Below are positions 13,532-34,964 of a DNA stretch of 64,000 nucleotides, one piece after another (position 1 is the first letter of the stretch; every line of letters begins with the position of its first letter). Source of the DNA: an uncultured delta proteobacterium (GTDB lineage Bacteria; Desulfobacterota; Binatia; UBA9968); the NCBI GenBank assembly GCA_963745035.1, contig CAVUVW010000026.1:64001-128000 (forward strand). Direction: 5' to 3'. Made by a program: the position numbers and the translations under genes. The notes beneath the pieces were generated by a model, which saw only the letters and a program-made list of their open reading frames with translations, made no database searches and was not told the origin of the DNA.

Positions 13532-13557
13532 GGGTTCAAATCCCGTCGGGGACGCCA
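13532..13557 (+). repeat. att core: tRNA-Glu 3'-end fragment GGGTTCAAATCCCGTCGGGGACGCCA
   Basis: T-arm plus acceptor strand with CCA; identical copy at 34939-34964; 5' half of the tRNA absent. Confidence 0.85.
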
Positions 13558-13587: not shown

Positions 13588-14103
13588 TCACCCTCTGAAA
13601 TTTCCGTTTCCATTTCCGTTTTTTTGCTCGAGCTCGGCCATCATCCGCGCGCCGAAGTCGCTGCTCATGTAGCGACCGTAGTGCTGCTCGATCATCTGCG
13701 CCGAGCTGCCGCACTGTTCTGCGATCGCCTTGATGTTCTCGCCGGCGGTAAGCGCCAAGCTGATGAACGTGTGTCTTGTGCAGTAGAGCGCTACTGAAAG
13801 ATTGTCGTTAGGCATGATGCCGACGGCGTTGAGCGCAGCACCGAAGAGGAGGAGAGCAGGGCCCAAATACACTTCCATGATTTGCTTTGCCGCTCCGTAA
13901 GACGCACCTGCTGATACAAGACGCTTGTAGTTGTCCATCCTTTGCAGAATATCTGCCAATTCCGAAAAGTTGGGTCGCCATTTGGGATGGCTATCCTGGA
14001 TTGCTGCCGCTAGGCCTCGAAGTTGTAAGATCGTATTTGCTGGGTAGCCGGTTTGGTCTACAAATACTGCCTCGTATTCGGATTCGAGTACCGTGTGCTT
14101 CAT
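13588..14103 (-). pseudogene. Tyrosine integrase C-terminal remnant fused to an unrelated N-terminus
   Basis: LYCTRHTFIS...IAEQCGSS..MIEQHY (RH...Y catalytic motifs) only in the last ~65 aa. Confidence 0.8.
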
Positions 14104-16811: not shown

Positions 16812-16849
16812 CTTGCTCCCCGCATCAAACCCCGGGTGATCGAACCGAT

Positions 16850-16869
16850 GCGTCGTTCAGTTCAATCCT
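16850..16869 (-). repeat. Inverted AGGATTGAACTG site (left boundary of module A)
   Basis: GCGTCGTTCAGTTCAATCCT; homolog at 31635-31655; reverse complement of the start of the 130-bp element. Confidence 0.7.
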
Positions 16870-16961
16870 GCGGGGAACTTTGCAATGGTCTGGCCGAAAT
16901 AAGCCGCCATTCGTTAGGAAGATAACCCGCCGCCCTGGCAGGTTTTGTCGGAAACGAAACG

Positions 16962-17080
16962 TTGACAAACTACGGAGCTGGCGGATATTGCATCTATTTG
17001 GATTTTATTGTCGGAGCCACTGCCGAGATAAACCGACCAGTAATTGTCGGTCGCTACGGCGGCTCACTTAATAGTTAGCG
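16962..17080 (+). promoter_or_regulatory. Candidate cassette promoter and attI-like site
   Basis: TTGACA at 16962; GTTAGCG at 17074-17080 opens the first cassette with no upstream RYYYAAC partner. Confidence 0.45.
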
Positions 17081-17094
17081 TGCAGAGGCGAACT

Positions 17095-17538
17095 ATGGCG
17101 AAGGTCAAGGAGTTACACGATGCGGTGAAGCGTGGGGATTTGGCTCTGGTGAAGGCGCTCCTTGACGAAGACCGTGCTCTCACGAACGCCGTGACCACGA
17201 CAGACGCGCGAGGCACGTATCCCCTCCATGTGGCGGCCGAGTTCGGTCAAGCCGAGGCTGCGCGCATCCTCCTGGGCTTTGGAGCGGACGTGTCGCTGCT
17301 CGATGCGGAGAATTATGCCATCGCCCTGGGGTGGGCAGCGTTCTTCGGCCGGCCAGAGGTTGTCGCGGTCCTTCTGGAAGTAGGATCGGAACCCAGCCAA
17401 CGCAACAAGCATGGTTTGACACCGCTTGCCTGTGCGGTGGGCGGGACGCAGGGGAGATGGAAACACTTCTCCAACGCGACTGTCGAGGAGTGGCAGCGGG
17501 CGGCAGACTTGATTCGTTCTCACGGAGGCATCGAGTAA
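17095..17538 (+). CDS. Ankyrin-repeat protein (integron cassette 1)
   Basis: LHDAVKRGD, YPLHVAAEFG, GLTPLACA repeats; bounded by GTTAGCG/CGCTAAC. Confidence 0.9.
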   Translation: MAKVKELHDAVKRGDLALVKALLDEDRALTNAVTTTDARGTYPLHVAAEFGQAEAARILLGFGADVSLLDAENYAIALGWAAFFGRPEVVAVLLEVGSEPSQRNKHGLTPLACAVGGTQGRWKHFSNATVEEWQRAADLIRSHGGIE

Positions 17539-17556
17539 GCGCTCCGGTTCCATGCG

Positions 17557-17642
17557 CGCTAACAACGGCGTTGAGCGGTCGCGCTGATGGTTGGCGACCA
17601 CACTGTCGTTGGTGCCCGCGCCGCCCACGCCTATCGTTAGAC
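17557..17642 (+). other. attC site 1
   Basis: CGCTAAC...GTTAGAC with an imperfect internal palindrome; R'' complements the cassette start. Confidence 0.85.
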
Positions 17643-17694
17643 CACTTAAACGACTACCGTTCCGATGACAGCAACTCAATAAAGGAGAATACCG

Positions 17695-18009
17695 ATGAAA
17701 TACATGATCAGCTGGTTCGAACGTCCGCAAGGATCGCCTACGGAATACGAGAATGCCCAGAAGCGAATACTGGAGGTTTTCACCCAATGGAAGGCGCCCG
17801 CCAATTTCAATATCGAGTTATTCGTGGTGCGGGTAGGCGATTGGGGCGGGTATATGATGGTGGACTGCGATGATCCGTTGACCGTTCACAAGTTCTGCTC
17901 GACCCTTCCTTCTTTTGTATTCGAAGCACGGCCAGTGGTTCCCGTTATGGACGCTGTCCGGGTGGAGCTAGAAGCGATTGCCTTTCGTGATGGGCTCAAA
18001 GGCAAGTAA
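17695..18009 (+). CDS. DUF3303-like protein (integron cassette 2)
   Basis: MKYMISWFER...FVVRVGDWGGYMMVDCDDP...FEARPVVPV; RBS AAGGAG. Confidence 0.8.
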   Translation: MKYMISWFERPQGSPTEYENAQKRILEVFTQWKAPANFNIELFVVRVGDWGGYMMVDCDDPLTVHKFCSTLPSFVFEARPVVPVMDAVRVELEAIAFRDGLKGK

Positions 18010-18084
18010 CATTCGAGAGGATCGAATCGCATTTGCCGAGTCGGCGAAAGATGTATTCACGACGAGTTTGATAAACACCGTGTG

Positions 18085-18177
18085 GCCTAACCATGCGCTG
18101 CAAGCGAACCCGGCCATCGCGCTCCGGTTGCACCGGACGCCCTCGTGGGCCGGGTCGCTGAGCTTGGGTCGTTAACC
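18085..18177 (+). other. attC site 2
   Basis: GCCTAACCATGCGCTGCAAGCGAACCCGGCC...GGCCGGGTCGCTGAGCTTGGGTCGTTAAC. Confidence 0.9.
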
Positions 18178-18307
18178 TACGATTGAACTGAATTCTCCAT
18201 CAACGCAGTCTCGCGTGAGATCACATTGAAGCGACGGAAATTTGGGTTCCCCTTGACGAATACTGTCAAAGGTATGGGCCGCGGGGACGTCTGATATTCA
18301 GTCAGCG
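18177..18307 (+). repeat. 130-bp non-coding element, copy A (copy B at 32609-32738)
   Basis: Near-identical copies that tolerate 1-nt indels; internal hairpins. Confidence 0.9.
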
Positions 18308-18384
18308 TGCTTCTCAGTTCGATGTCCGCTCGCCCTCTCATAAACGGCTTGCTTGATCGCCGCAGGTCGTCAGGGGGCCACCCA

Positions 18385-19197
18385 TCAGAAGGTTGCATGC
18401 GTGTCCTGCCATCCGAGTCCGTTCCAAAACACTATTTCGAGCAATCGCCTTATTTTCCGACTTGGAAGATTGCGAAAGATCCCATTGTTCGGCCCTACCA
18501 TGCGGTAATCCAAATGAATCCGCCGGTAATCCCATTTGACACGGTCAAGCGGTCGCCATTCGCCGGGGGCCTCCTCGCCGAACAGCCCGCTTGAGCCGCC
18601 TTCAAACCGATGGTCGACGAAAATGCCCTCTCTTGCCGGGTTGGGGCATCGTTGCTCAGTAATAGTGAGTTGTGGGACAATCTTGAATCTCGTGTATCCC
18701 AGCTGATCGAGCAGCTGCAGTTGCGTGAACGTGTCCTTGATCGACGTCGCGCTTGCCTCCACCGAAATATACTTCGGCTTCTTCTCTACGCTGAGCAGAC
18801 CTTCGAGGCATACGGAATCCATTCCCTCGATATCTACTTTCATGTAGTACGGCACACCGAATTTTAGGATGACGTCCTTGATCGTAGTCGCCTCGACCTT
18901 AACCGGATGACTCTTGAATCCTCGCGCATCGTTTCTTTTGACCCACTCGGGGTTTGCTGTCCCCCATATGCTGACTTGCTCGTTGACAAAAAAATCGATG
19001 GTTCCGACGGTATGACTGATTGCCTTGTTGATGATCTGTAATTGGCCAGAGCCGATCGCTGCCGAGAATTTGTGTGCGCACTCCTCGCAGAGTTGGGCAT
19101 TCGCCTCGATTCCGACGACCCGAAATCCTTTTCTGAGATAGAACTCCGTGTCTTCTCCTGTATGCATTCCAACGTCATAGATTAAGTCGTCTCGCAT
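18385..19197 (-). CDS. FkbM-family methyltransferase
   Basis: IYDVGMHTGEDT...VVGIEAN...MKVDIEG. Confidence 0.9.
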   Translation of the reverse strand: MRDDLIYDVGMHTGEDTEFYLRKGFRVVGIEANAQLCEECAHKFSAAIGSGQLQIINKAISHTVGTIDFFVNEQVSIWGTANPEWVKRNDARGFKSHPVKVEATTIKDVILKFGVPYYMKVDIEGMDSVCLEGLLSVEKKPKYISVEASATSIKDTFTQLQLLDQLGYTRFKIVPQLTITEQRCPNPAREGIFVDHRFEGGSSGLFGEEAPGEWRPLDRVKWDYRRIHLDYRMVGPNNGIFRNLPSRKIRRLLEIVFWNGLGWQDTHATF

Positions 19198-19312
19198 CTC
19201 GTAATCTCCAGGGTTATGAATACGCGCCGATCTGTGTCTCGAAAGATCGTCATCGCTTCGGGCACAACGGCGCTTTTCGACTCAACGATGGGTCCGAAAC
19301 CCGTCTGCTCTG

Positions 19313-19489
19313 GTTCTGTGCCAACCAGAGCAGAACAAACACCTCCCATTGTCTAACACCCGGGAGGTGAACATTAAATAATTGGATTTTTTCGTTGATG
19401 TTCCGCTCTGGTTTGGCCCCGACTTGACTCTTAATCAGCGGGTCCGGGGGTGTTCTGGATGCTAGGATTGAACTGAATTCTCCATCAAC
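19313..19489 (+). repeat. att-arm plus tRNA-Lys(CTT) fragment plus GCTAGGATTGAACTG site, copy A (copy B at 33456-33614)
   Basis: TGACTCTTAATCAGCGGGTCCGGGG anticodon-arm fragment; ~170 bp homologous to copy B. Confidence 0.8.
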
Positions 19490-19490
19490 T

Positions 19491-19590
19491 TTGAGTGCGG
19501 TGGTACTGCTTACTGTTGCGGTCGTCGCCGAGGCGCAACAGCCTAAGAAAATCCATCGAATAGGTTATCTATCGCTGATCGACCCAGCTC
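19491..19590 (+). pseudogene. N-terminal fragment of an ABC substrate-binding protein
   Basis: VVLLTVAVVAEAQQPKKIHRIGYLS. Confidence 0.65.
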
Positions 19591-19690
19591 TTGGACAAGC
19601 AGATTGAATGGCAGCAGCAGTATCCGGGACACGATATCTATTTCCCGCAGAGCGCTGCCGCTCAGCTTAAAATCAGCGCTGGTGCAATGG

Positions 19691-19819
19691 AAAGAATCAT
19701 CACGTTTAGAATGCTCGTGGTCCACCGATGTCATTCACTGACGAACACCGAACTGTTCACCAGCGATCAGCAGATGTTCACGAGTGGATAGCCCCCCAAT
19801 TACTATTAAGATTACTAAG
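19691..19819. repeat. ~130-bp dispersed repeat (partner 29701-29840), replication-gene/iteron-like
   Basis: Shared gaatgctcgtggtcc...gaacacc.aactgttcacc.gcgatcagcagatgttca...gccccccaattact.ttaagattactaaga. Confidence 0.8.
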
Positions 19820-19894
19820 AGAATTATTATTTAGATAAATACTAATGGTGTCCGCGACGATTCGTGGTCCACTGAGAACGTTCTGCCTTGGTCG

Positions 19895-26878: not shown

Positions 26879-27823
26879 GGAGCCCTGATCGAGCGTTCTG
26901 CTGTAGTTTATCAACTCAGCATGATCGTTGGGCCAGAGTAATTCTCGGATCGCAGCGCCACGGTCTGTGCTCCCCGGCTTTTTCGAGATGGACTCCCGGC
27001 GTGTCGCCTGGTTTCACTTGTGGCGCGTACATTCGGGTCCGGTTTGGCTAATGGTTTAACCCGTTCTTCGATTCACTACAGAGCGGGAATAGAGAAATTT
27101 GAATTTCGGCTTGCCCTCGTAGCGATAAACGGCAGCAGGCGAGCGGTTCTCGTTGAACTCTTTCCTCATTGCCCCTTGCACCTCCATGTTTGAGGAGCGC
27201 TACGGACTCAGTAAATCTCGTAGCGGAGGTGATAATGAAAAATTTCTCTCTGTAGCCGTTCTCCTCGTGACTGCTCCACAAGGAAAGAAGTTGACGGGCC
27301 TCGAATACGGGGAGTGCGGCTTTAGTCTGACTGTGGCGCTCCAACTCGGTACCGGGTTAACTGATGAAGAAAATCTATTTCACGGGGTTAAAGAACTAAT
27401 CTGAAAAATCATCTTGATCCCCACGCGACAACTATGTCAGAAGTTTTTTCCTGTCACGCAGTTTCTTCTCGGCCACGATTTCCAAAGCCGACAAGATTAC
27501 ACCCCAGGCATCAAGCGGCTGCCTTTCATTGCCCTGGTACAGTTGTTGCCTATTTACCGAGTCGACGTTGATGCTACGAACTGACCACCCCAGATGGTCA
27601 CCATGGGTGTCAGGGAGCAAATGGTGAAACCGCCAACGGTCGCGATCGCTTTTTTTGCCTCCCCGCAGCCTGCTGACTCTTTCTCGGTAATCAGTCCGTA
27701 ATCTGCACAACAAGCGACAACATTGGCAAAACTCGGCCGACTCGGTTCGCTGGAGCGATTGAAGGACCGAAACGGCAGAGAGAACATTTGGTTATCGGAG
27801 CGGTGATCGTGAGGCAAAACTCA

Positions 27824-28237
27824 ATGAGAACATTCCTTTTGTCCGGAGTCATTTTCGTCTTTTTGAATGGCTGCGCTGCTCCGTTGGCTCTGACTCTTCT
27901 TGGCGTAGGTGCCGGCGTAACGACGGGTACAGCAGTCTCATACACGATGGACGGGATTGCCTACCGAACCTTTACAGCGCCGCTTCCACAGGTCGAGCGG
28001 GCCACGCTGACAGCGCTAAATGATATGGGAATGGAAGTCGAGAGCGCAGAGAAAACTGACAACGGGAAAGCAATCAAAGCCAAGGGAGTCGACCGTCGGA
28101 TCGAGATAGAATTGCAGGCAATAAGCTCGAAGGCAACCCGAATCCGCACGGTTGCCAAGGACGGGGTGTTTTTCAAGGACCGGGCGACCGCTACGGAAAT
28201 CATTTTACAGACCGAAAGAATTCTTGGCAAAGCGTAA
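27824..28237 (+). CDS. DUF3568-family lipoprotein
   Basis: LNGC lipobox, GVGAGVTTG, ...RATATEII.QT. Confidence 0.8.
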   Translation: MRTFLLSGVIFVFLNGCAAPLALTLLGVGAGVTTGTAVSYTMDGIAYRTFTAPLPQVERATLTALNDMGMEVESAEKTDNGKAIKAKGVDRRIEIELQAISSKATRIRTVAKDGVFFKDRATATEIILQTERILGKA

Positions 28238-29603: not shown

Positions 29604-30078
29604 CGACTTAAGCAACAGCTAATGCGGGGTCATCAGCGCCGGTACTCTGGGGATGGGTGATGATTGCGTGCAATACGGGAGCTTCAGCGCTGGTGGGATG
29701 GGAAGAATCATCACCCTAAGAATGCTCGTGGTCCTGCTAGACAGTAGATGCCGTTCACTGGTGAACACCAAACTGTTCACCGGCGATCAGCAGATGTTCA
29801 TGGGTGAATAGCCCCCCAATTACTTTTAAGATTACTAAGATCGTCCGCTCCTTGGTTATTCCACCTCTGTATTTTTAGCCCAACACCCAATCGTCTCCCG
29901 CTTCCAACTTCAAGTCGCGATCAAAACTCCAAGCCTTCGCGTCGATATCGCGGGGTCTCGCCTCGTGTATGTCACGAGTTTTCCAACTACGAATCAAGGT
30001 GACGATACCTGGAAGGATACAAAAAGATACGCTGGGTGTGATGATGAGTATGAGAGCTAGACTGTGCACGTTTCTAAC

Positions 30079-31553
30079 TAGTTCTCACTGAAAAAGTAGG
30101 GTTGAGACCGGATTGGAGATCATCAGCGACTGAATCGGTTTTTCAAATGGGAACAATCTTTAGAGTTGATCATCACTCAGGTTCTTTGCCACAGGTTGTA
30201 AGAGAAGATCGCCCATCCTGTCCAGATAGCCGTTCCTGCAGAGCCCTTGGCCAGCACTCGACCCAAGCCGAACTTGCGTTTCAGCATACTGATGGAGGCT
30301 TCTATGCCGCAGCGAAACCGTTGCAATTGTCTGAACCACTTCTTTCTTTGATGAGTCCTTTCACGGCTGCTCAAGCGGCCCACTTTCGGGATGCCGACTT
30401 TCTCAATCCCGGCCTGGCTGAGTTTCAGCACGTTATCGCGACTGTAGTAACCTCGATCCGCGGCCAGTTCCGTAGGTTTTATCCCCACAGCGGTTTTTGC
30501 CTGTCGCAGTACCGAAAGCAGTTCGGTCCTATCGCTGGGGTTGCCTCTGTGAACCTCGTAGTGAACGATGACTCCACAACTGTCCTGCACCAGCTGCAGC
30601 GTACGCCCAAACTCCACCGCCTTATTAAGTTTCCCTTTGCGAATCGGCCGCACCTCAGGGTCGTGGAAGGAAACGATCCGCTGCGGGATTGATTTTTGTC
30701 CCGCAAGCTTTTGCTCGGTCTGGCTCAGAATAGTTTGAGCCCGCTCGATTTGATCCAAAAACTTTCCCTTGAGCTTTGCACACTGATCCGACACCGATGG
30801 AAACGCCCGGCGGCTCTGTCGAACGGTGTGTTGGACAAGCTTGGCCACTTTCTTGAGGATTTTTCTTCCCTTCCTTTGACGCTCTTTGGGCTTGCCCTTG
30901 GCCGACTGACTCCAACTGAAAAGCGCCCGCTTGGTGGCCCGTACGTGGCTGGTGATCTTTTGACCCAAAGAGCGCGCCGTACGGGTAAGCGTTTTGATCG
31001 CCTGGTGCATCACTCCAACATCGTTGGGATAGCTGATGTGAGCCTCCAGGGTGGTGGAGTCGATGCGAATCCGGCGCGGCTTAATCGATCGACTCTTGAT
31101 CAACTGCTTGACCAAATGCTTATTGAGACCGCTGATCCGATCTTGGCCAAATCTTTGATTGAGCTTGATCAAAGTCGTAGCGTCGGGGACGGGGTCCATC
31201 AGGGAAAGATGGCAAAAATACCGCCACGGCAGCCTCTCTCGAACTTCCCGCTCCACTTCTTCGTAGCTCAAGCCCCAGCGAAATTTCAGGTACATCATCC
31301 GCAGATAGATCCCCACCGCCGTGCCGGGACGGCCCAGACTCGGATCGAAAACCTCCTCAAAGGGTCTGAGCAAAGGCGCATTGGACAAAAGCTCATCGAC
31401 CTTTTTAAGCTCTTCATCCAACTCGTAGAGCGAGGCATCGACAAAACCATCGCCAAAACTCATTTGCTGGGATATGGGTCTGCGCATGATTTACTCTTTA
31501 CACGATACTACTGCTCAGACCCAAGACAATTTGTACTTTTTCAGTGAGAACTA
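30079..31553 (-). mobile_element. IS5/ISNCY-type insertion sequence
   Basis: 20-bp perfect TIRs TAGTTCTCACTGAAAAAGTA / TACTTTTTCAGTGAGAACTA (terminal TA may be the target duplication). Confidence 0.92.
30177..31487 (-). CDS. IS5-like DDE transposase
   Basis: GRPG, PDATTL, RIDST, AADRGY, RCGIEASIS.LKR. Confidence 0.95.
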   Translation of the reverse strand: MRRPISQQMSFGDGFVDASLYELDEELKKVDELLSNAPLLRPFEEVFDPSLGRPGTAVGIYLRMMYLKFRWGLSYEEVEREVRERLPWRYFCHLSLMDPVPDATTLIKLNQRFGQDRISGLNKHLVKQLIKSRSIKPRRIRIDSTTLEAHISYPNDVGVMHQAIKTLTRTARSLGQKITSHVRATKRALFSWSQSAKGKPKERQRKGRKILKKVAKLVQHTVRQSRRAFPSVSDQCAKLKGKFLDQIERAQTILSQTEQKLAGQKSIPQRIVSFHDPEVRPIRKGKLNKAVEFGRTLQLVQDSCGVIVHYEVHRGNPSDRTELLSVLRQAKTAVGIKPTELAADRGYYSRDNVLKLSQAGIEKVGIPKVGRLSSRERTHQRKKWFRQLQRFRCGIEASISMLKRKFGLGRVLAKGSAGTAIWTGWAIFSYNLWQRT

Positions 31554-31634
31554 ATTACTACTGGATCGGTTTCACGTACTAAAAGCCGCGGTCGGATTCT
31601 CCATCAATCCGATATTCGCAGCAATCCAACTAAA

Positions 31635-31655
31635 GCGTCGTACAGGTCAATCCTA
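31635..31655 (-). repeat. Inverted AGGATTGA site (left boundary of module B)
   Basis: GCGTCGTACAGGTCAATCCTA, homologous to 16850-16869. Confidence 0.65.
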
Positions 31656-31723: not shown

Positions 31724-32500
31724 ATGTTCGAAGTCGCAGAGGCATATGAAGTAATGATGGGGCGGTGGAGCCGGCAGTTGGCGCCGTTGTTTGTGGCCTT
31801 TGTCGGTGTCCGGGATGGTGAGAGTGTGCTCGACGTAGGATGTGGCACGGGCTCGCTATCAATGACTTTGGCCAGAGTCACTGGAGCTTCGAAGATTGTT
31901 GGTATCGATCCTTCCAGCGGTTTTGTCGAATACGCCCGGACGCAAAATGCCGATCCGCGTGTGACCTTCGAGGTCGGCGACGCGCAGGCCTTGCCTTACT
32001 CCGACGAGTCATTCGACCGATCCATGGCATTACTCATCGTCAACTTTATCCCCGATGCTCCAAAGGCGGCGAAAGAGATGCGCAGAGTGACGCGGTCAGG
32101 AGGTATAGTTGCAACGACGATGTGGGACCGCCGTGCTAACGAACTCAATGCCTGCTTGTGGAAGGCCGCCGTTGCGATCGATCCGACTGTGAAACGGCCT
32201 ACTGAGACGGGACGGTCGTACGGTTCTGCGGAAGCGCTTTCAGATCTCTGGAAAAGCGCCAGTCTTACAGACATCGAAGTTACAGACTTGATGATGCCGT
32301 GCTAGTTCTCTTCGTTTGATGAGCTGTGGCAACGTAGTCTGACTGGCGAGAGCGCTGGGAGCGCTTACGTGCTCAGTCTGACAGAGGATCGCCGCCAGGC
32401 GTTAAGACAACAGTTGCGGCAAGATGTTCTGCACGGCAATGCCGATGGGCCGTTTACACTTCAAGCGAAAGCGTGGGCGGTGCGTGGTCTCGTGCCTTGA
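31724..32500 (+). pseudogene. Class I SAM methyltransferase with an in-frame TAG at 32303-32305
   Basis: VLDVGCGTG; same frame continues FSSFDELW...AKAWAVRGLVP*. Confidence 0.85.
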
Positions 32501-32553
32501 ATCGAATTGCGTAATACCCGGGGAAGAAGTTGAGAGCTGTTATTGACAGATTT

Positions 32554-32608
32554 GCCTAACCTCCGGCTTGAGAAAGGCGCTTCGCGCTTCTCAGCCTTCA
32601 CGTTAACG
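32554..32608 (+). other. attC site 3 (short)
   Basis: GCCTAAC...GGCTTGAGAA...TTCTCAGCC...GTTAACG. Confidence 0.75.
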
Positions 32609-32738
32609 CTAGGATTGAACTGAATTCTCCATCAACGCAATCTGGCGTGAGATCACATTGAAGCGACGAAATTTGGGTTCCCCTTTGACGAATACTGTCA
32701 AAGGCATGGGCCGCGGGGACGCTGATATTCAGTCAGCG
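32609..32738 (+). repeat. 130-bp non-coding element, copy B
   Basis: See 18177-18307. Confidence 0.9.
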
Positions 32739-32853
32739 GAATATTTCCATTCGATGTAGCGTGCGAAGCGAGGCGGTTTTAGCGGCGCCTCTCACCTAAT
32801 TAGGATGATCACACCTATCGCCATTTTCCGTAAAAGCAGTCCGGAGAAAATTT

Positions 32854-33332
32854 TTATCCTGCCGGTACTACTCCGCGCACTGCCCAAGCCTTTGCACGAA
32901 GTTTAATCGACCCATCAGGGCGATTACCAAGACTGTCTGTGCGTAGTCGCTCCTTCAATACCTGTCGGCGATCGTCGGAGAGACTACTGATATAAGGTTT
33001 AGGCGGTCCCTGGGTATTTGACAAGAGACTCCAGAAATCGTCAAGGGAAGTTTCTGAGCATCTCCGATTTCAAAAGCAACATGCGGATGTGAATTCTGCG
33101 CACGAGCATATTCTAAGTAGCCAACTGAAGGGTCAATGCCGACAACAGTTGAGGCTTTTGTTGTATCAGCGATAGTGAATGTCAGTGAACCCGTACCACA
33201 GCCTACGTCTAATACCCGATCCCCTTCTTTAATACCGTCTATAAATTTGATGAAGAGAGGAGCAAGGGTTTTACTCCTGCTTGCCATTCCGGCCTGATAC
33301 TTATCAGCATCCGTGTGCAGGTTGGGTTCCAT
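32854..33332 (-). pseudogene. Internally deleted class I SAM methyltransferase, paralog of 31724-32500
   Basis: RVLDVGCGTGSL...GDAQKLP, then the C-terminal piece KLRAKAWAVRGVVPAG*. Confidence 0.8.
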
Positions 33333-33455
33333 AGTCGCCTCCGTAACCGTGTTGACCGGGACTGACGTCTAACTACCAACATACTGATAGCTTTTGCGGA
33401 TATTAATATCGCCAAAGGCCGCCGGCAAGGTAAAGGCCGATTCTAAGCTGTGCCT

Positions 33456-33614
33456 GTTCTGTGCCAGAACCAGAGCAGAACATCATATCCCATTGCCTAA
33501 CGCCCTGGAGACGAGCGTTAGAATTATTGGCTTTTCTTGTTGATGCTCTGGTCTGCGCTTGAATTGACTCTTAATCAGCGGGCATAGGGTCTTCTGTGAT
33601 GCTAGGATTGAACT
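33456..33614 (+). repeat. att-arm plus tRNA-Lys(CTT) fragment plus GCTAGGATTGAACT, copy B
   Basis: See 19313-19489. Confidence 0.8.
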
Positions 33615-34938: not shown

Positions 34939-34964
34939 GGGTTCAAATCCCGTCGGGGACGCCA
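34939..34964 (+). repeat. att core: second tRNA-Glu 3'-end copy
   Basis: Identical to 13532-13557. Confidence 0.85.

Follow-up and report, generated by a model that had tools for sequence, protein, structure and literature searches.

Why should two unrelated integron recombination sites run, at the very base where recombination takes place, into one and the same non-coding sequence? The question is raised by a stretch of 64,000 nt (hereafter the window) from an uncultured delta proteobacterium, corresponding to positions 64,001 to 128,000 of contig CAVUVW010000026.1 in GenBank assembly GCA_963745035.1, in which two attC sites, attC2 and attC3, are each followed by a copy of an element of about 130 nt. 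Copy A (18171-18325) and copy B (32602-32757) both begin exactly at the G|TT crossover of the attC site. The window comes from contig C26 of a genome of 7.4 Mb in 28 contigs that belongs to the class Binatia (G000), and the names C2, C3, C6, C10, C11, C13, C14, C17, C19, C26 and C27 used below denote contigs of this host genome. Our results indicate that the element is probably the fossil of a palindromic repeat that has suffered a deletion of its right arm, that the palindrome is the gene-less form of an element of ca. 1.0 kb carrying a recombinase gene, and that its position next to attC crossovers would be due to integron core sites.

Copy A (GTTAAC-CTACGATTGAAC at 18171) and copy B (GTTAAC-GCTAGGATTGAAC at 32602) directly follow two attC sites that are dissimilar in sequence and in length (93 and 55 nt), as stated in the original prediction, which had been made from the DNA letters. 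Their alignment rendered 95% identity over ca. 130 nt with three 1-nt indels, beyond which the likeness is weak up to a common TTCGATGT (18318-18325 and 32750-32757). A 27-mer of the element was found three times in the window, with no match expected from 100 shuffles, and the third match, a 29-nt fragment at 19461-19489, was absent from that prediction. The indels between copies break all reading frames, which confirms that the element is non-coding. It consists of two parts, the first 56-57 nt corresponding to the left arm and centre of a palindrome and the remainder to a non-coding leader, tail-1A, that is normally located 3' of the right arm and of which the genome has four copies (window A, window B, C11:133581, and the reverse strand of C2 at 64950). 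A four-way alignment showed that A and B are both without the same 20 nt, TTCAGTTCAATCTCAGGCTA, comprising the right arm plus 8 nt, which are present in the paralogues C11:133495 and C2. As judged from its sequence, the element is a broken, dead copy of a palindromic repeat family, and it would have been produced by deletion of 20 nt (TTCAGTTCAATC and 8 bases) from a palindrome of ca. 72 nt, with retention of the leader that follows.

The repeat of this family is an imperfect palindrome of ca. 72 nt (GATTGAACTGAATTCTCC...GCGTCGTTCAGTTCAATC) whose complete form reads GATTGAACTGAA TTCTCC, a variable centre, and GCGTCG TTCAGTTCAATC. A 23-mer core, searched with as many as 4 mismatches allowed, rendered 31 matches in the host genome, both arms being present in 16, and arrays in the same orientation, with a repeat spacing of about 0.7-1.3 kb, were found on C11, C13 and C14. 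The genes between array repeats are small and cassette-like (SnoaL/DUF4440, glyoxalase, PIN, methyltransferases, TENA, DJ-1), and several solute-binding genes of ATP-binding cassette (ABC) transport, of the ABC_sub_bind family, also lie there. A TENA/THI-4 unit, located between a left-arm-only and a complete repeat, is common to C11:147203-148046 and C13:1123691-1124534, has different neighbours in the two arrays, and includes a 20-nt remnant of an ABC gene end. Of 24 other genomes of the genus, 17 also contain the palindrome, as does one out of five genomes of one family beyond the genus, whereas none out of 11 genomes of another family has it. An exact 21-letter pattern identified 101 stretches of public metagenome-assembled genome (MAG) contigs, mostly assigned to soil Binatia or to 'uncultured delta proteobacterium', with a few on short contigs binned to other phyla; a single match in a cultured Algoriphagus is probably due to chance.

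The complete palindrome folds as single-stranded DNA better than its shuffles (z of -2.8 and -3.5). In a structural alignment of 58 distinct complete palindromes from several genomes, an outer stem of 12-13 bp (93% of cells paired) is nearly invariant and therefore says little; it is followed by an asymmetric unpaired loop TTCTCC/GCGTCG, an inner stem and a variable tip, with GTT at the inner edge of the right arm. Covariation, which had been proposed as a check, gave a divided result: two inner-stem pairs show compensatory changes (UA 27 / AU 9; AU 19 / GU 16 / GC 7), but the overall inner-stem score, 0.101 vs 0.092 in shuffles, was matched by 36 of 500 shuffles. Shifting the stem partners lowered pairing from 86% to 47% or less, and RNAalifold on a MAFFT alignment returned only the invariant outer stem. 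Because of the shuffles that reached the same covariation and of the loss of pairing upon sliding, the hairpin can be counted as well supported by the symmetry of the sequence and weakly by covariation.

Longer relatives of the palindrome hold a gene between the two arms. At C11:129885-130900 the order is left arm, a tyrosine-recombinase gene of 300 codons, and right arm 7 nt after the stop codon, the gene being decayed, with a stop codon in frame and a reading frame that is scrambled in one place. Relatives of this gene were identified in 427 stretches of soil metagenomes, with 348 proteins at E<=1e-20, which are typically of 301 aa and labelled XerC or XerD in their source, one of them coming from a Binatia MAG. 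Out of 80 loci kept, 55 were examined, the other 25 being excluded for a match touching the locus end, for coverage of a small part of the protein, or for <=39% identity. The right arm was found in 37 of the 55, its distance from the match end being 12-19 nt in 36 and 61 nt in the remaining one. In 23 loci the left arm precedes the start of the match by about 390-460 nt and the ATG by about 90 nt, and 18 loci have both arms; many contigs end before the position of the left arm, so that the left-arm count is a lower bound. Sixteen elements could be delimited in full, measuring 1011-1020 bp, nine of them with an intact open reading frame (ORF) of 300-310 aa. The same 18-nt arms thus bracket the 301-aa recombinase in 18/55 metagenome loci and on C11, a sharing of terminal repeats as is found between a miniature inverted-repeat transposable element (MITE) and its larger partner. 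As is the case for the short palindrome, the recombinase elements are preceded by the end of an ABC gene or by an attC-like core and followed by the tail-1 leader, and three metagenome contigs have in common the upstream flank and the element and differ past the right arm.

The 301-aa protein bears Phage_integrase and SAM-like N-terminal domains (Pfam), and its best solved relative is Escherichia coli XerD (E 6.7e-38). The C-terminal 198 aa of the C11 copy, a partial protein, scored below the XerA/XerC/XerD cut-offs, with 124.5 and 118.2 bits against NCBIfam XerC and XerD cut-offs of 335 and 330. By eye, the sequence apparently shows the catalytic residues R, K, HxxR, H and Y. On the other hand, the protein does not have the marks of an integron integrase: it is 23% identical to the host IntI, a gap of ca. 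21 residues faces an extra segment of IntI that we take to be the I2 insertion, and the TIGR02249 model matches it only at positions 257-297 (49.9 bits). The ca. 1.0-kb element of soil Binatia consists of two 18-nt arms around a XerD-like tyrosine recombinase, the arms being most likely the binding sites of this enzyme, and the short form would be either a solo site or a non-autonomous derivative comparable to a MITE. The tyrosine recombinases located next to palindromes in another genome, G018, were considered as the partner enzyme and rejected, since they form part of an IS91-like pair for which the repeat is an insertion target. This pair, made up of a tyrosine recombinase of 278-299 aa and an ORF of ca. 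391-396 aa, is present in six copies, some of them fragmented (G018 contigs C5, C23, C41, C37 and C10), three of which adjoin the palindrome; in the two copies on C23 the left arm is cut at an identical junction.

The second part of the question concerns the crossover itself. The host genome has an integron, with an IntI encoded at C6:42134-43036 (444-445 bits for TIGR02249 against a cut-off of 265) and, about 240 nt 3' of the intI stop codon and on the same strand, the site ..TTCACTTAATAG|TTAG followed by a gene and an attC, that is, an attI with cassettes alongside. Since the C6 core and cassettes are on the strand of intI, the integrase is co-directional with its cassettes. Integrases of the 'inverted integrase group' point the same way as their cassettes. 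The group is named in the consulted part of a review (PMC3575428). Scans for attC sites with regular expressions and constrained DNA folding missed known sites and were dropped. The sites attC2 (GCCTAAC...GTTAACC, 18085-18177, 93 nt) and attC3 (GCCTAAC...GTTAACG, 32554-32608, 55 nt) differ in sequence, fold as imperfect hairpins with bulges in their inner stems, and have ends of the R'' RYYYAAC and R' GTTRRRY type, in which the last three letters of R' depart from RRRY, as is expected if they come from the next unit. Sites of the attC2 type were found across the genus, and nine loci were cut out for comparison. The alignment reaches the last base before TT in six of them, unrelated sequence starting with TTA or TTG then following, and none of the nine has the element in the next 90 nt. 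The element starts, therefore, at a genuine IntI crossover, as had been claimed.

Upstream of copy A there is an orphan promoter-attI module, 'tail-2', that can be aligned from end to end with the 240 nt separating the stop codon of intI from the first C6 cassette, including a promoter-like TTGACA-16-GATATT (16962-16989) and the terminal CTCACTTAATAG|TTAG. Its close paralogues number six in the genome and run to dozens in the genus, and at least ten orphan copies of the module are distributed over contigs C3, C6, C10, C11, C14, C17, C19, C26 and C27. At the integrase itself, the motif CACTTAATAG|TTAG is located about 240 nt downstream of intI, and a cassette comes after it. Homology between modules ends at the core in all copies, the cargo after the core being different each time, and the module at C6:35571 retains a remnant of the 3' end of intI. 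In three out of six orphan-module units (C26, C11:148322 and C14:612951) the start of the unit is the exact complement of the closing attC R''; in the window, cassette 1 begins with TTAGCG, exactly complementary to its own R'' CGCTAAC. Cassette 2, like the family of sites to which attC2 belongs, was found repeatedly in the genus, with homology ending at G|TT. These modules offer an explanation for the location of the element. Palindromes lie directly after integron cores of the GTTRRRY type, which would be why the element abuts attC crossovers. IntI placed two classical cassettes at the G|TT of the module upstream of copy A, so that attC2 became joined to the post-core TTAACC, a 3-nt spacer TAC, and the palindrome. 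For the fusion of copy A this attI-type core account is shown, and that of copy B to attC3 may be explained likewise, by analogy. The proposal of a preferred IntI site linking cassettes was thus close to the mark for copy A, although the site is the attI-type core before the element and not the element itself. In a separate case (L198, on contig C9 of genome G003), the G|TT of a site of the attC2 type leads directly into 35 nt left over from the end of an attI module and then into a second core (..CGCTCACTTAGTAGTTGGGC), which suggests an attI remnant within an array.

The frequency with which palindromes adjoin cores was assessed by counting as core-like any GTT[AG]N[CT] located 0-7 nt upstream of the left arm. 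Such a hexamer was found at 11 of 39 matches in the host genome, 11 of 90 in other genomes and 3 of 36 metagenome loci, as compared to 429 of 20000 random positions (2.1%), and its spacing to the left arm is 5 nt in 19 of the 25 cases. The commonest context of the left arm is, however, the 3' end of an ABC_sub_bind gene, called by a crude peptide motif (13/39, 44/90 and 15/36, respectively), and 12 of the 91 ABC_sub_bind gene ends of the host genome bear the repeat, at spacings of 7, 17-18 or 28 nt.

We infer the action of the recombinase on the arms, the manner in which the palindrome came to lie beside a core, and the manner in which the truncated block came to be present twice, and a number of observations weigh against the explanation as a whole. 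There is no attI module upstream of copy B, so that the attC3 fusion is accounted for by analogy only. A copy without the right arm would be immobile as a palindrome, and its duplication therefore needs another event, which could be a segmental duplication or an exchange at G|TT. Empty sites, searched for with the strict pattern of an ABC stop codon followed by the leader, gave 0 matches in 31 genomes, which is a weak test, and a clean empty attI module followed by a palindrome was not found either, the two pattern matches being a truncated one in G001 and one beside intI in G005. In the latter genome (unpublished, and publishable only with permission of the depositors) the left arm lies 4 nt further on from an intI-linked core. 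The tail-1 leader is always next to the right arm in the host genome (5/5) and nearly so elsewhere (9/10). No target-site duplication was seen in the flanks of the palindromes and recombinase elements inspected, and junctions of abutted outer ends, indicative of circles, gave 0 matches in the DNA searched. As to the enzyme, no intact recombinase gene of the family was found in the host genome. The 30 other genomes of the genus rendered no close relative at E<=1e-30, in spite of palindromes being common there, and 300 other genomes of the class rendered one fragment only, behind a left arm. The weak inner-stem covariation mentioned above points in the same direction.

A different role for the palindrome would be that of a recombination site, either as the attC-like hairpin of a second gene-capture system of the Xer type or as a site also used by IntI. 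The mobile unit would then run from a right arm through the leader and its cargo (mostly an ABC solute-binding gene, or an orphan attI module) to the next left arm, and the window element would be the worn 3' site of the upstream unit. We regard this as possible, but less likely. In its favour are the arrays in the same orientation, with repeats spaced at about 1.2 kb and one gene per interval, nine intervals that are bounded right-arm-first (the left bounding copy keeps its right arm and the right bounding copy its left arm), the ties of the leader to the right arm and of 12 ABC 3' ends to the left arm at fixed spacings, the three metagenome contigs that are alike up to the element and different beyond its right arm, and a hairpin geometry like that of attC, with some compensatory changes in the inner stem. 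Covariation is, however, not significant, and a recombinase gene between two arms is the usual layout of an insertion sequence (IS). Partial copies, which were considered as marking one precise central crossover, break at scattered points, 24 to 59 nt into the repeat, and that idea was rejected. Whole palindromes 93-96% identical, including the centre, occur at five loci with upstream flanks of three kinds and different downstream flanks, so that the cargo varies to the left as well as to the right. The outer boxes ATTGAAC/GTTCAAT and inner boxes ACTGAAT/GTTCAGT have each 1-2 mismatches to RYYYAAC/GTTRRRY; in genomes G014 and G015 the palindromes are on contigs other than that of intI, and in the host genome the palindrome nearest to intI is 35 kb away. 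The IS/MITE-like reading, in which left arm, gene or short centre, and right arm move together, is therefore somewhat ahead, supported by the gene-between-arms layout and by the near-identical whole palindromes in different contexts, and the window element is a dead copy under both readings. A broader proposal, that Binatia run two gene-capture systems in the same arrays, a classical integron and a Xer-type system whose 72-nt hairpin houses its own recombinase gene, with the latter shuffling solute-binding-protein genes and promoter-attI platforms as integrase-less landing pads, is more doubtful still.

Explanations confined to the element itself appear improbable. It might encode, at the head of a cassette, a functional structured RNA (leader, terminator or small RNA), as suggested by the conservation of the block between copies (95%, against 79% for the flanking element B described below) and by copy B, which as single-stranded DNA folds somewhat better than shuffles (z of -2.65 and -2.78). 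Copy A, in contrast, folds no better than shuffled sequence (z of -0.28 and -0.53), no promoter-like or terminator-like site was called within the element, and an Rfam gathering scan of the window rendered no family for it. The first of the hairpins originally described, CCTTTGAC-N7-GTCAAAGG, is exact in copy B, but copy A has CCCTTGAC instead, and it is lost in the paralogues C11:133581 and C2:64950 (reverse strand), so that an RNA role, one of those initially proposed, is improbable. Another of these, a gene-less integron cassette, is the least probable of all: the start at the G|TT crossover with TTAAC is indeed cassette-like, but the element itself lacks an attC, and one has to go 1.1 kb further, past a methyltransferase gene, to reach an attC-like site. 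It is only the 5' end of a longer unit, and the same unit on C11 has the identical layout. Scarcely more credible would be a C-terminal remnant of a minus-strand gene in the 3' half. The leaders do give loosely similar peptides when read by eye (..TVFIKWQDQI* and ..TRFIEGEKANL*), but the 1-nt indels between copies are uncompensated, the 73-aa ORF at 18177-18398 has no Pfam match, and the distance from the repeat to the start of a plus-strand ABC gene is 70-100 nt in most copies, which leaves no room for a gene on the minus strand.

If the element is a remnant of a recombinase-associated palindrome, several known systems invite comparison. IS1111-attC elements are small mobile elements that insert at a fixed position of attC and leave degenerate footprints, and they encode a DEDD transposase that is RNA-guided. 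The present element is like them in settling at integron attC sites and in leaving footprints in cassette arrays, but the enzyme here is XerD-like (Phage_integrase and SAM-like domains) and not of the DEDD type, and its commonest home is the 3' end of an ABC solute-binding gene rather than attC. Group IIC-attC introns, according to the consulted portion of PMC3001079, insert into attC in one orientation and have an enzyme of their own. They consist of a ribozyme and a reverse transcriptase, and the Rfam scan of the window found no intron family, its only match being a c-di-GMP-II riboswitch. The element had been set apart from these two systems on the grounds that they encode their own enzyme, a contrast that fails in view of the XerD-like tyrosine recombinase of its full-length relatives. 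The MITEs that flank integrons are a few hundred bp long and are found around whole integrons or single cassettes in clinical strains. Such MITE-flanked integrons, or integron mobilization units, in which short inverted repeats bracket parts of integrons, are represented among the references of PMC3575428. The arrangement found here resembles them in that repeats with arms lie on either side of orphan promoter-attI modules that contain one or two cassettes, and differs in the 72-nt repeat, the tyrosine-recombinase partner and the absence of intI from the bracketed module.

Sedentary chromosomal integrons have species-specific attC repeats such as the Vibrio cholerae repeats (VCRs), with which the palindrome shares the imperfect symmetry, conserved ends, unpaired spacer, variable tip and arrangement in same-orientation arrays, at a spacing of about 1.2 kb. 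It differs in its boxes, which are off the consensus, in coexisting with canonical attC sites that lie in the same arrays and immediately next to it, and in that a recombinase gene can sit inside. Regarding the modules, the available text of PMC12901181 deals with DeltaattI-type cassettes in mobile integrons, where copies or remnants of attI away from intI are used as recombination sites. DeltaattI sites are short remnants of attI1 or attI2 in clinical arrays, whereas the modules reported here are whole, of ca. 210-240 nt, and present in at least ten chromosomal copies. Finally, palindromic repeats with a dedicated enzyme are known in REPIN/RAYT systems, and movers of modules from the Xer family in Xer-dif systems (integrative mobile elements exploiting Xer, IMEX, and pdif modules); the RAYTs belong to the HUH enzymes, and REPINs lie scattered and do not form arrays. 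The likeness resides in the link of palindromic repeats to a dedicated or Xer-family enzyme. A dif-like site of 28 bp, in which 6-8 bp separate two arms, was not seen; the distance between the arms is here 48 nt or 1 kb.

In the literature searched (titles and abstract openings), no description of a recombinase-bearing palindrome in cassette arrays was found, nor any work joining Binatia with integrons, the works retrieved dealing with integrons, IS1111 and MITEs in general, so that this small mobile element interleaved with a classical integron is apparently undescribed. Integron arrays are usually read as the outcome of IntI acting on attC and attI alone. Here, a second repeat family with a Xer-like enzyme adjoins those sites and, moreover, brackets orphan promoter-attI modules that have demonstrably received classical cassettes. 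Should the recombinase indeed move these pieces, the origin and spread of integrase-less cassette clusters within a genome would be explained, and a 1-kb tyrosine-recombinase element with miniature derivatives would be added to the short list of bacterial mobile-element types. Such repeats also break metagenome assemblies and can mislead attC finders.

Table. Features around the two copies of the element, in window coordinates
Feature	Position	Strand	Remarks
Palindrome remnant without outer left arm	16816..16869	+	Right arm GTCGTTCAGTTCAATC at 16852-16867
Orphan promoter-attI module ('tail-2')	16868..17080	+	Non-coding; core GTTAGCG 17074-17080
Cassette 1: ankyrin-repeat ORF ~17095-17538 and attC1	17075..17636	+	R'' CGCTAAC 17557-17563, R' GTTAGAC 17636-17642
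Cassette 2: DUF3303 ORF 17695-18009 and attC2	17637..18171	+	R'' GCCTAAC 18085-18091, R' GTTAACC 18171-18177
Copy A, first part: core remainder TTAACC, spacer TAC, left arm and centre (18181-18236)	18172..18236	+	Right arm deleted
Copy A, second part: conserved non-coding leader tail-1A	18237..18325	+	Four-way alignment
FkbM-type methyltransferase, cargo of the unit starting with copy A	18385..19197	-	
'Element B', attC-like site closing the FkbM unit	19310..19458	+	R'' GTCTAAC 19351-19357, R' GTTCTGG 19452-19458
Left-arm-only palindrome fragment	19461..19489	+	Fused to signal-peptide region of truncated ABC_sub_bind gene (19490-19600)
Insertion sequence, DUF772 and DDE_Tnp_1 transposase	30177..31487	-	~110 nt from next palindrome
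Palindrome without outer left arm	31596..31654	+	Right arm 31637-31652
Class I SAM (S-adenosylmethionine) methyltransferase (frameshifted, to ~32500) and attC3	31724..32608	+	R'' 32554-32560, R' GTTAACG 32602-32608
Copy B: core remainder TTAACG, spacer CTAG, left arm and centre (32613-32668), tail-1A leader	32603..32757	+	Right arm deleted
Inverted, internally deleted methyltransferase-cassette remnant	32803..33375	-	Intact at C11:148332-149218
Second copy of element B, then 14-nt left-arm stub GCTAGGATTGAACT	33455..33614	+	79% identical to first copy

The units headed by copies A and B have minus-strand methyltransferase genes downstream of the element, and both close with element B, an attC-like site of 105 nt with an R'' of GTCTAAC or GCCTAAC. 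The stem of its first copy is ACACCCGG/CCGGGGGTGT, and its R' position reads GTTCTGG, the equivalent place in the second copy reading GTCTTCT; in three other genomes, homology to element B stops 1-10 nt before that GTT. The FkbM unit recurs at C11:133508-134836 with 95% identity and an intact palindrome at its head. Upstream of copy B the order is IS, palindrome without outer left arm, a short leader, the methyltransferase gene and attC3. Homologues of this methyltransferase in five other genomes are in ordinary contexts, and the left border of the attC3 unit is not fixed by them. A direct repeat of ca. 150 nt, 88-89% identical, adjoins both element loci (19673-19820 and 29684-29840).

Identical 26-nt direct repeats that resemble the 3' end of a tRNA were found at 13532-13557 and 34939-34964, enclosing a stretch of ca. 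21.4 kb of lower GC content that contains both element copies and may be a genomic island. No complete tRNA was detected in the window by ARAGORN. Adjoining the first of these repeats, the ORF at 13588-14103 (minus strand) reads like the catalytic end of a tyrosine integrase, Pfam being silent. The window or part of it is contained in 20 public sequencing runs, six of them recorded as RNA, among which only one has more than a small share of the sampled words. The c-di-GMP-II riboswitch mentioned above is located at 27560-27644 (plus strand), with 50.1 bits against a gathering score of 40, upstream of a DUF3568 ORF (27788-28237).

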